Source: Escherichia coli
Lineage (GTDB): Bacteria > Pseudomonadota > Gammaproteobacteria > Enterobacterales > Enterobacteriaceae
Direction: 5' to 3' (one strand)
Assembly (NCBI RefSeq): GCF_003334305.1
Contig: NZ_QOWS01000015.1
DNA: 64,000 nucleotides
Below the pieces are notes generated by a model that was not told where the DNA came from, did no database searches, and was given only the letters and a program-made list of their open reading frames with translations. Made by a program: the position numbers and the translations under genes. Of the stretch, positions 8,491-9,925 are shown piece by piece. The first letter of the stretch is position 1. Every line of letters starts with the position of its first letter.

Positions 8491-9699
8491 GTGAAACGAT
8501 TACAGGCATTTAAATTCCAGTTAAGACCAGGTGGTCAACAGGAGTGTGAAATGAGGCGCTTCGCAGGCGCATGTCGTTTCGTTTTCAATCGTGCTCTGGC
8601 ACGTCAGAATGAGAATCATGAGGCCGGTAATAAATACATCCCTTACGGGAAAATGGCTTCCTGGCTGGTTGAGTGGAAAAACGCCACTGAAACGCAATGG
8701 CTTAAAGATTCGCCCTCACAGCCATTGCAACAGTCACTGAAAGACCTTGAGCGGGCTTACAAAAACTTCTTCCGGAAGCGGGCTGCTTTTCCCCGATTCA
8801 AAAAGCGGGGACAGAATGATGCATTCCGCTACCCGCAGGGCGTAAAGCTCGATCAGGAAAACAGCCGTATTTTTCTGCCGAAACTGGGCTGGATGCGCTA
8901 CCGGAATAGCCGTCAGGTCACGGGTGTTGTGAAAAATGTCACGGTCAGCCAGTCCTGCGGTAAGTGGTACATCAGTATTCAGACAGAAAGTGAAGTATCC
9001 ACTCCGGTTCACCCTTCAGCATCAATGGTCGGGCTGGATGCTGGCGTGGCTAAACTCGCCACGCTGTCAGATGGCACAGTCTTTGAGCCTGTAAACAGTT
9101 TTCAGAAAAACCAGAAGACGCTGGCGAGACTTCAGCGACAGTTAAGCCGCAAGGTCAAATTCAGCAACAACTGGCAGAAGCAGAAACGCAAAATACAGCG
9201 ACTGCATTCCCGTATCGCAAATATCCGCAGGGACTACCTTCACAAAGTCACAACGACCGTCAGCAAAAACCACGCAATGATAGTCATTGAGGATTTGAAG
9301 GTCAGCAACATGTCAAAGTCAGCAGCGGGTACGGTCAGCCAGCCGGGGCGCAATGTCCGGGCAAAATCAGGTTTAAACCGTTCGATACTGGATCAGGGCT
9401 GGTATGAAATGCGCCGCCAGCTTGAGTACAAGCAGCTCTGGAGTGGCGGTCAGGTGCTTGCTGCTCCGCCAGCGTACACAAGCCAGCGTTGCGCGTGCTG
9501 TGGTCATACAGCGAAAGAAAATCGCCTGTCACAAAGTCAATTCAGATGCCAGGTATGTGGATATACAGCGAACGCCGATGTAAACGGCGCTCGTAACATT
9601 TTAGCGGCGGGGCACGCCGTTCTTGCCTGTGGAGAGATGGTGCAGTCAGGCCGCTCGTTGAAGCAGGAACCCACCGAAATGATTCAGGCGACAGCCTGA
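8491..9699 (+). CDS. tnpB: TnpB (IS605 OrfB-type RuvC-like RNA-guided endonuclease)
   Basis: 402 aa; RuvC-I (GLDAGV), RuvC-II (VIEDL), CxxC...CxxC zinc finger (CACCGH...CQVCG) and RuvC-III (NADVNGARN) all present; GTG start at 8491. Confidence 0.9.
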
Positions 9700-9750
9700 A
9701 CGTAGCAGGGATCCTCGTCATTCAGGGCGTGGAGGATGTCAAGACACGGA
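9560..9750 (+). ncRNA. Candidate omega-RNA (right-end RNA) overlapping the tnpB 3' end and the IS right end
   Basis: Inferred from the established architecture of IS200/IS605 TnpB loci; no transcript evidence; boundaries are a guess. Confidence 0.3.
9713..9732 (+). repeat. Candidate right-end subterminal hairpin of the IS (cctcgtca-ttca-gggcgtgg)
   Basis: Same loop and near-identical arms as the hairpin at 8011-8030; lies 14 nt after the tnpB stop. Confidence 0.55.
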
Positions 9751-9925
9751 AAACGAACATGATGTTTGTGGTTGGTAATTATCACCGATCGTTGATGGCG
9801 CAATTTCTGCGCCATCGCAAAAAAATCCTCCGTGATGCTCGTCACAAATCTTGCCCTCCCGATGTTGTGCTATGCTTTTTATCAGCGACTAACCCGCTAA
9901 TGCAAAACAGATAAGTGAGGAAACA

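Follow-up and report, generated by a model that had tools for sequence, protein, structure and literature searches.

A solved TnpB-bound RNA of the IS200/IS605 family of insertion sequences (IS) is the omega-RNA of ISDra2 from Deinococcus radiodurans, known from cryo-EM, whose scaffold measures 116 nt and folds into four stems, with a pseudoknot between -5 to -3 and -103 to -105 and a UUUA loop at -20 to -17 in stem 4 (PMC10097598). TnpB is described as obtaining its guide through 5' processing of its own mRNA (PMC10278001), and the TnpBs of the IS605 family as homing endonucleases acting on vacant sites (PMC10690162). A closer relative is listed in Table S3 of PMC12781874 as an 'IS609 omega-RNA scaffold' with a target starting with TTAT; the same paper purified a TnpB that it calls IS609. 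Here we describe the copy of IS609 inserted within yoaG in a window of 64,000 nucleotides of Escherichia coli DNA (the whole stretch analysed, from contig NZ_QOWS01000015.1 of assembly GCF_003334305.1). We read positions 9596-9742 of its plus strand as the IS609 omega-RNA (right-end RNA) scaffold and the DNA from 9743 onward as the guide, with a probability of roughly 0.87. This reading is carried by exact element ends, a covarying structure with its covariance model, a codon constraint at the RNA level, intact TnpB and TnpA and a TTAT/TTAC insertion site, all observed directly, together with the published scaffold. The same arrangement, in which the scaffold spans the 3' end of tnpB and the right end and the flank serves as guide, had been proposed in a first-pass annotation of the sequence and is upheld on each of these counts.

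The published IS609 scaffold is the sequence of a Pantoea relative in our collection of loci (L023), from the zinc-finger codons to ...GGGGAGGAUGUCAA. It has the same GGAGGAUGUCAA end and aligns column for column with 9540-9742 of the window. It differs in coming from a relative with about 85% TnpB identity instead of from the E. coli copy, while the window copy has its own yoaG guide and a terminal hairpin with two mismatches. As in ISDra2, the RNA overlaps the 3' end of tnpB, the scaffold stops where the element ends and is followed by a guide of 16 nt. Both also carry a terminal UUYA-tetraloop hairpin about 20 nt from the guide; the IS609 loop (UUCA here, UUUA in most relatives) lies at -22 to -19. 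A counterpart of the ISDra2 pseudoknot is proposed in the pairing of -9 to -4 with -147 to -142, on position and one-sided changes only. Unlike ISDra2, IS609 has a scaffold of about 147 nt, one more hairpin (d, which separates the central module from the terminal hairpin), a predicted TTAT rather than a TTGAT transposon-associated motif (TAM), and a tnpA gene divergent from tnpB.

IS609 and its guide-RNA class are already known, and little here is new. By its sequence the element is an ordinary, complete IS609 of the IS200/IS605 family, and that call is correct; it is a known element and not a discovery. IS609, the ISfinder name of the E. coli insQ/ydcM element, is catalogued; its protein is already called an RNA-guided endonuclease in RefSeq, and an IS609-type scaffold has been published. 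The omega-RNA is unannotated in the RefSeq records examined, and the present analysis adds exact E. coli coordinates for the scaffold, the guide and the predicted TAM (Table 1), with comparative support. About one fifth of complete E. coli genomes carry the yoaG copy and its guide matches the intact yoaG of the remainder of the species. This yoaG::IS609 polymorphism is a natural setting for testing TnpB-driven retention or homing between strains.

Table 1. Features of the IS609 copy and its flanks, in window coordinates (negative numbers are counted from the guide)
Feature	Position	Strand	Basis and remarks
IS609 copy	7995..9742	+	1748 bp, within yoaG; both ends from empty-site comparison
TTAT target site, predicted TAM of TnpB	7991..7994	+	abuts the left end here and in four other E. 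coli copies
Left-end subterminal hairpin CCCCGTCCTTCAGGGCGGGG, UUCA loop, putative TnpA recognition hairpin	8011..8030	+	8-bp hairpin in single-stranded DNA, -7.5 kcal/mol
tnpA, Y1 (HUH) transposase, intact, 143 aa	8052..8483	-	NCBIfam NF033573 transpos_IS200, 142.8 bits, cutoff 55
tnpB, RNA-guided endonuclease, 402 aa, GTG start, TGA stop at 9697-9699	8491..9699	+	NCBIfam guided_TnpB, 384.8 bits, cutoff 100
Predicted omega-RNA scaffold, minimal conserved structured region, 147 nt	9596..9742	+	covariation, covariance model, codon constraint; model match from 9581
Closing long-range helix, 5' strand ACAUUU	9596..9601	+	pairs with 9734-9739 (GGAUGU, -9 to -4 from the guide)
Hairpin a (GCGGCG / CGCCGU), over LAAGHAV codons	9604..9620	+	double compensatory changes in 4 of 6 pairs
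RAGATH-18-like module	9626..9669	+	P1 9626-9630/9663-9667, asymmetric internal loop, P2 9634-9641/9650-9656
Hairpin d, tnpB stop codon in 3' arm	9674..9709	+	double changes in 5 of 10 pairs
Terminal hairpin e, also right-end subterminal hairpin and putative TnpA recognition hairpin, UUCA loop	9712..9733	+	6 of 9 pairs compensatory in relatives
TCAA, last four bases of the right end, putative TnpA right cleavage site	9739..9742	+	GTCAA final in every right end collected
Predicted 16-nt guide GACACGGAAAACGAAC (20 nt would extend to 9762), displaced yoaG 3' end	9743..9758	+	first bases past the right end, identical to the empty-site sequence after TTAT
Displaced end of yoaG, last 11 codons and stop (DTENEHDVCGW*)	9743..9778	+	comparison with intact yoaG in locus L001

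Ends, insertion site and distribution of the element

The insertion point was located by comparison with the empty site of strain SF-088, which reads CGTTCTTAT/GACACGGAAAAC (also readable as TTAT/GACACGG). The order in the window is CGTTCTTAT/CCGGTGCGCC...(IS)...GGAGGATGTCAA/GACACGGAAAAC, and the element thus entered the 3' end of yoaG directly after TTAT, without duplication. The right end, with its final motif ...GAGGATGTCAA, is placed at 9742 both by the empty site and by 71 distinct right ends gathered from E. coli copies and 80 relative loci, with TnpBs 57-100% identical. All of these finish with GAGGATGTCAA and then diverge completely; their terminal consensus is GAGGA(T/C/A)GTCAA and similarity stops at its last base. 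The E. coli copies, at five different loci with the window included, agree on this boundary. Copies L002-L004 share the GGAGGATGTCAA terminus and have TTTAT upstream in three of three cases, while a copy next to yfeD, described below, has ends identical to those of the window copy. The mapped end therefore lies close to the hairpin at 9713-9732, as the first-pass annotation had assumed, and not far from it.

At the left end, TTAT is found in five E. coli copies (window included). Among the relatives, the flank is TTAT at 11 loci and TTAC at 8, that is 19 of the 27 loci with a readable flank; most or all of the remaining 8 look mis-anchored. A sharp right end preceded by a left end flanked by TTAT or TTAC is the behaviour expected of a transposon end with a TnpA cleavage site. 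The terminal TCAA would be that site, as the corresponding motif is in IS608.

A megablast search of 5,426 complete E. coli genomes identified copies 97-98% identical to the element at ydcL/ydcO, which is where insQ lies in K-12, at yfaY/yfaV and within a TetR gene of O157:H7. Over the whole element, identity to the O157:H7 copy is 97.7%, and the termini are equal; RefSeq names the tnpA of that copy 'IS609 family'. The yoaG junction itself is present in 1100 of the 5426 genomes, nearly always at 99% identity or more.

Both genes of the window copy are intact. TnpB is a relative of ISDra2 TnpB over its full length; it aligns with the ISDra2 TnpB structures over residues 3-376 (E 2e-55) and keeps the RuvC residues D, E and D (GLDAG, IEDL, NADVNGA) as well as two CxxC zinc-finger pairs. 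The predicted scaffold begins to overlap the gene six codons past the last catalytic aspartate (D363) and mostly covers the C-terminal tail, a part that is disordered in ISDra2 TnpB (PMC10097598). The start codons of tnpA (8483, minus strand) and tnpB (8491, plus strand) are divergent and only 7 bp apart, so each promoter must lie inside the other gene; a simple promoter scan gave no convincing sigma-70-like site for either.

A conserved structure across the 3' end of tnpB

An earlier protein search had returned only near-identical E. coli sequences, useless for covariation. Diversity was supplied by a scan of one genome per species, which gave 80 loci whose TnpBs are 94% to 57% identical and which range from Enterobacterales to Burkholderiales. 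With 41 sequences, RNAalifold predicted 39 pairs, 22 of them with compensatory changes on both sides. A structure of 45 pairs was then written on a 26-sequence alignment that holds no Escherichia or Citrobacter. In this alignment 94.4% of the cells form standard pairs, compared to 39-47% when the 3' partners are slid by 1-3 columns, and double (compensatory) changes occur in 20 of the 45 pairs as opposed to 5-8 after sliding. None of 500 shuffles attained the observed values. Besides the counts of Table 1, four of the seven pairs of P2 in the RAGATH-18-like module are compensatory, and the loop of hairpin d differs in length among relatives. These comparisons identify the last 147 nt or so of IS609 as a conserved multi-stem RNA.

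A covariance model (R1) built from the 26 non-Escherichia sequences matches the window in full only once, over plus-strand positions 9581-9742 with 169.1 bits (E 1.4e-48), and its alignment contains two non-standard pairs only, both in hairpin e. The covariance-model search proposed in the first-pass annotation thus favours its scaffold. The RNA fold prediction that it also proposed gave a divided answer: folding the single sequence is only weakly better than folding shuffled versions (z -2.1 and -1.65) and for that reason was not counted as evidence, whereas the comparative structure is strong, and the case rests on comparison. Of the positions given in the same annotation, the tnpB stop at 9697-9699 (reading frame 8491-9699, TGA) is correct, and a hairpin of right-end type, CCTCGTCATTCAGGGCGTGG, stands exactly at 9713-9732. 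However, the scaffold does not lie almost entirely inside the open reading frame (ORF) as had been supposed: 104 of its 147 nt (9596-9699, about 70%) are coding and 43 nt (9700-9742) follow the stop.

The terminal hairpin, counterpart of left-end CCCCGTCCTTCAGGGCGGGG, and the TCAA motif resemble the left end in form. In IS608, hairpins and end motifs of this type are the elements that TnpA recognizes and cleaves. The conserved region could accordingly consist of right-end cis elements that TnpA uses on single-stranded DNA, with no RNA involved. This is highly improbable, as the covarying stems (hairpin a, the RAGATH-18-like module and hairpin d) reach 147 nt inward, deep into the ORF, while the left end has no counterpart stems. 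Below E 1, model R1 has one other match only, to the left-end hairpin (8011-8030), which aligns with the terminal-hairpin positions at 13.9 bits; just those 20 nt are matched. Moreover, the terminal tetraloop hairpin and the long-range pairing near the guide resemble the solved TnpB-bound RNA (PMC10097598), and a homologous sequence serves as TnpB scaffold in vitro (PMC12781874).

Codon usage provides a separate view of the same region. In 74 intact tnpB genes, the chance that the same residue is encoded by the same codon is about 0.45 over most of the gene and rises to 0.70-0.79 in the last 30 codons or so. From 9595 to 9690, synonymous constraint is 1.36-1.66 times the expectation corrected for amino-acid composition, while amino-acid identity drops to about 0.45-0.58. 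In hairpin a the amino acids vary among relatives and the stem is preserved, and the constraint therefore acts on nucleotides. Its onset (about 9595) coincides with the 5' strand of the closing helix.

It should be mentioned that tnpB contains a second peak of synonymous constraint at 9235-9294 (1.3-1.42 times expected), with a core at 9256-9275 (GTCAGCAAAAACCACGCA). The codons ATC AGC (A/C)AA AAC CAC GC of this peak are near-invariant, third positions included, in TnpBs down to 57% identity. A promoter-like site on the minus strand (9305-9277) was considered as its cause and rejected, its -10 hexamer not being conserved in distant relatives.

A constrained and structured 3' end could also work chiefly in cis, affecting the expression of tnpB or the stability of its mRNA, or in trans as a small RNA that guides nothing. 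Transcripts overlapping tnpB in sense were first seen as regulatory-looking non-coding RNAs, one effect being on growth in Halobacterium (PMC4615843), and regions of the TnpB mRNA can inhibit cleavage in cis (PMC10278001). Such roles are compatible with guiding. As the principal function they are improbable, since in every relative the scaffold stops exactly at the element boundary and a variable flank follows, a pattern that marks a guide RNA rather than a stability element.

Likeness to RAGATH-18, HgcC and sot0042

The sub-threshold matches to Rfam families all concern RNAs tied to tnpB or to transposon right ends, namely RAGATH-18, HgcC and sot0042. RAGATH-18 (RF03064) matches 9626-9669 with 29.5 bits (E 0.0058), below its gathering score of 44.9, and two relatives with 29.8 and 22.8 bits. 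RAGATH-18 is the core of the right-end RNAs (reRNAs) of IS607 TnpBs and is described only beside IS607 TnpBs, outside the coding sequence (Ren et al., PMC11061315). Both of its conserved strands are present in IS609 (CCUGUGGAGAG ... CUCGUUGAAGCAGGAA, compared to the consensus cCUguGGAGuG ... CaCGaUGAAgcAGgAA) and the order of elements is shared with the IS607 reRNA: a 5' hairpin, the module, two 3' stem-loops and the guide. The IS609 module differs by an inner stem of 17 nt instead of 44 and by its location inside the tnpB ORF of an IS605-type element with a Y1 transposase. The resemblance is a lead and not an assignment to the family. We propose tentatively, at slightly less than even odds, that the omega-RNAs of the IS609 clade carry a compact RAGATH-18 module within the ORF, followed by two 3' stem-loops, and share their architectural class with the IS607 reRNAs. 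In that case, guide RNAs of RAGATH-18 type would extend beyond IS607 TnpBs, contrary to PMC11061315, and two classes of guide RNA would share ancestry. The module would also have been squeezed into coding sequence, with the C-terminal tail of TnpB evolving to keep the RNA stems.

In many beta-proteobacterial relatives (L054, L063, L042, L034, L074 and others), the inner stem of the RAGATH-18-like module carries 20-25 extra nt, an extension that adds codons to the C-terminal tail of TnpB. A second group of relatives has an additional stem inserted ahead of the terminal hairpin. RNA and protein tail therefore vary in length together.

HgcC (RF00062) and sot0042 (RF02656) are archaeal families with the same 3' form, a hairpin CCccCGcccUUuAgggCGggG followed by GAGGAGGUCA. 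HgcC, whose gathering score of 50 bits is not reached, does not match the window at E up to 1. Sub-threshold matches of 18.9-34.3 bits are found in proteobacterial relatives (L011, L026, L032, L034, L044, L047, L054 and L083); they cover the omega-RNA region, from the tnpB 3' end through the right end. The matches to sot0042 are weak and sub-threshold, in the window as in the relatives. sot0042 was described as a transcript of a tnpB 3' end and HgcC as carrying a tetraloop motif like that of right ends, the UUCA tetraloop motif being common to tnpB 3'-end transcripts and HgcC (PMC4615843). These similarities suggest that HgcC is itself a family of TnpB guide RNAs.

Predicted guide, proposed target and state of the yoaG copy

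Since the right end is fixed at 9742, the guide starts at 9743, within the interval of about 9740-9760 expected by the first-pass annotation. That annotation derived the guide from the region upstream of yeaQ, which needs correction: the IS sits inside yoaG and the guide is consequently yoaG coding sequence, part of the displaced last 11 codons (9743-9778). Allowing up to 3 mismatches, the guide has no second match in the 64-kb window.

By analogy with other TnpBs, the tnpB message would read through 9742 into yoaG and be the source of the guide RNA. TnpB would bind the scaffold and trim its 5' side, and some 16-20 nt of yoaG flank would stay as guide. The transcription and processing of the window copy, the loading of TnpB and its cleavage activity are all proposed on this analogy. 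The complex of TnpB and omega-RNA would then recognize TTAT followed by GACACGGAAAACGAAC, TTAT being the predicted TAM of this TnpB from the sequences flanking the left ends. This is the uninterrupted yoaG allele, which is present in about 80% of complete E. coli genomes, and seamless excision of the window copy by TnpA would regenerate exactly the TTAT-GACACGGAAAACGAAC target. If the complex cut that allele, recombination with a copy bearing the IS would bring the element back, a form of transposon retention or homing. The occupied locus should be protected because neither of its junctions joins TTAT to a guide match: at the left junction TTAT runs into IS sequence, and at the right junction the guide match is preceded by TCAA, not by TTAT.

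The right-end hairpin of the window copy is a variant. Compared with other E. coli copies, it carries two substitutions (CCACGTCC to CCTCGTCA) that leave the mismatches U9715.U9730 and A9720.G9725 in hairpin e, those flagged by the alignment to the model. As single-stranded DNA, the canonical hairpin is not the minimum-energy fold of the window copy (-3.2 kcal/mol; the ydcO copy has -7.7 and the left end -7.5). The same variant is present in a copy that O145:H28 and O157:H7 strains carry between gltX and yfeD (L085, at about 2210-2231). This copy is otherwise 98.0% identical to that of the window, has a frameshifted tnpA and is flanked by TTTAT. The variant right end also occurs, in the absence of the yoaG junction, in about 477 additional genomes; the three of these that were listed are at yfeD. 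We considered that the two mismatches had immobilised the window copy, which would explain the fixed site in 1100 genomes. However, the variant hairpin in a TTTAT-flanked copy at yfeD implies that the variant spread to a second locus, and the idea of immobilisation is weakened by it.

Several observations weigh against the omega-RNA reading. At the RNA level, the terminal hairpin with its two mismatches is 3.4 kcal/mol weaker than that of the ydcO copy, and the corresponding stem 4 is contacted by TnpB in ISDra2 (PMC10097598). The closing helix (9596-9601/9734-9739) is paired in 98% of cases over the 26 sequences, but its changes are one-sided and wobble-compatible only. Neither the window region nor 20 relatives matched any Rfam family at gathering thresholds. 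The promoter scan gave no plus-strand sigma-70-like promoter in 7900-10000, so that transcription is ascribed to the tnpB message by analogy with other TnpBs. Finally, of nine TnpBs tested in PMC12781874, that of IS609 type did not rank first in activity, and its own activity is not stated in the sections cited here.

Part of these observations would fit an RNA locus that is real by descent in a copy that is functionally silent, an inherited relic whose transcript is not made or not loaded, or whose TnpB does not cut. The two mismatches in the terminal hairpin and the lack of a promoter-like site in the scan are in line with such a relic, as are the single fixed site in 1100 of 5426 genomes, which suggests long vertical inheritance, the tnpA pseudogenes of several sister copies and the cited literature, which reports no activity for the E. 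coli IS609 protein. Against this, the window copy retains intact tnpB and tnpA genes. With a model derived from other genera, its scaffold reaches 169 bits and shows two non-standard pairs only, and the occurrence of the variant hairpin at the TTTAT-flanked yfeD copy indicates that elements of this kind moved or were copied. There is also a K-12 transcript over the 3' end of tnpB, as RNA-seq of E. coli K-12 is reported to show transcripts that overlap the 3' ends of tnpB (PMC4615843). The K-12 record H52 has two matches to our junction query, the yoaG half and one other. The latter is presumably the right end of the IS609 copy at ydcO, and the K-12 transcript thus most likely derives from a sister copy of the window element. 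A silent copy is in our view unlikely, and an omega-RNA with its yoaG-derived guide is the reading that we retain.

Two minor observations concern the flanks of the insertion. The spacer between yoaG and yeaQ contains, at 9794-9825 and 52 nt beyond the right end, a 9-bp hairpin (GATGGCGCA-ATTTC-TGCGCCATC) followed by GCAAAAAAA. It is native sequence, because the spacer occurs in the empty site too, and is unlike a terminator for a read-through transcript because the plus strand has no T-run. On the other side, the upstream part of yoaG reads into the IS to form a chimeric ORF of 62 aa (7848-8036). In this chimeric YoaG, the native DTENEHDVCGW is swapped for 13 residues encoded by the IS (PVRRKTPSFRAGI), whose codons run through the left-end hairpin, and about 20% of complete E. 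coli genomes have YoaG altered in this way.

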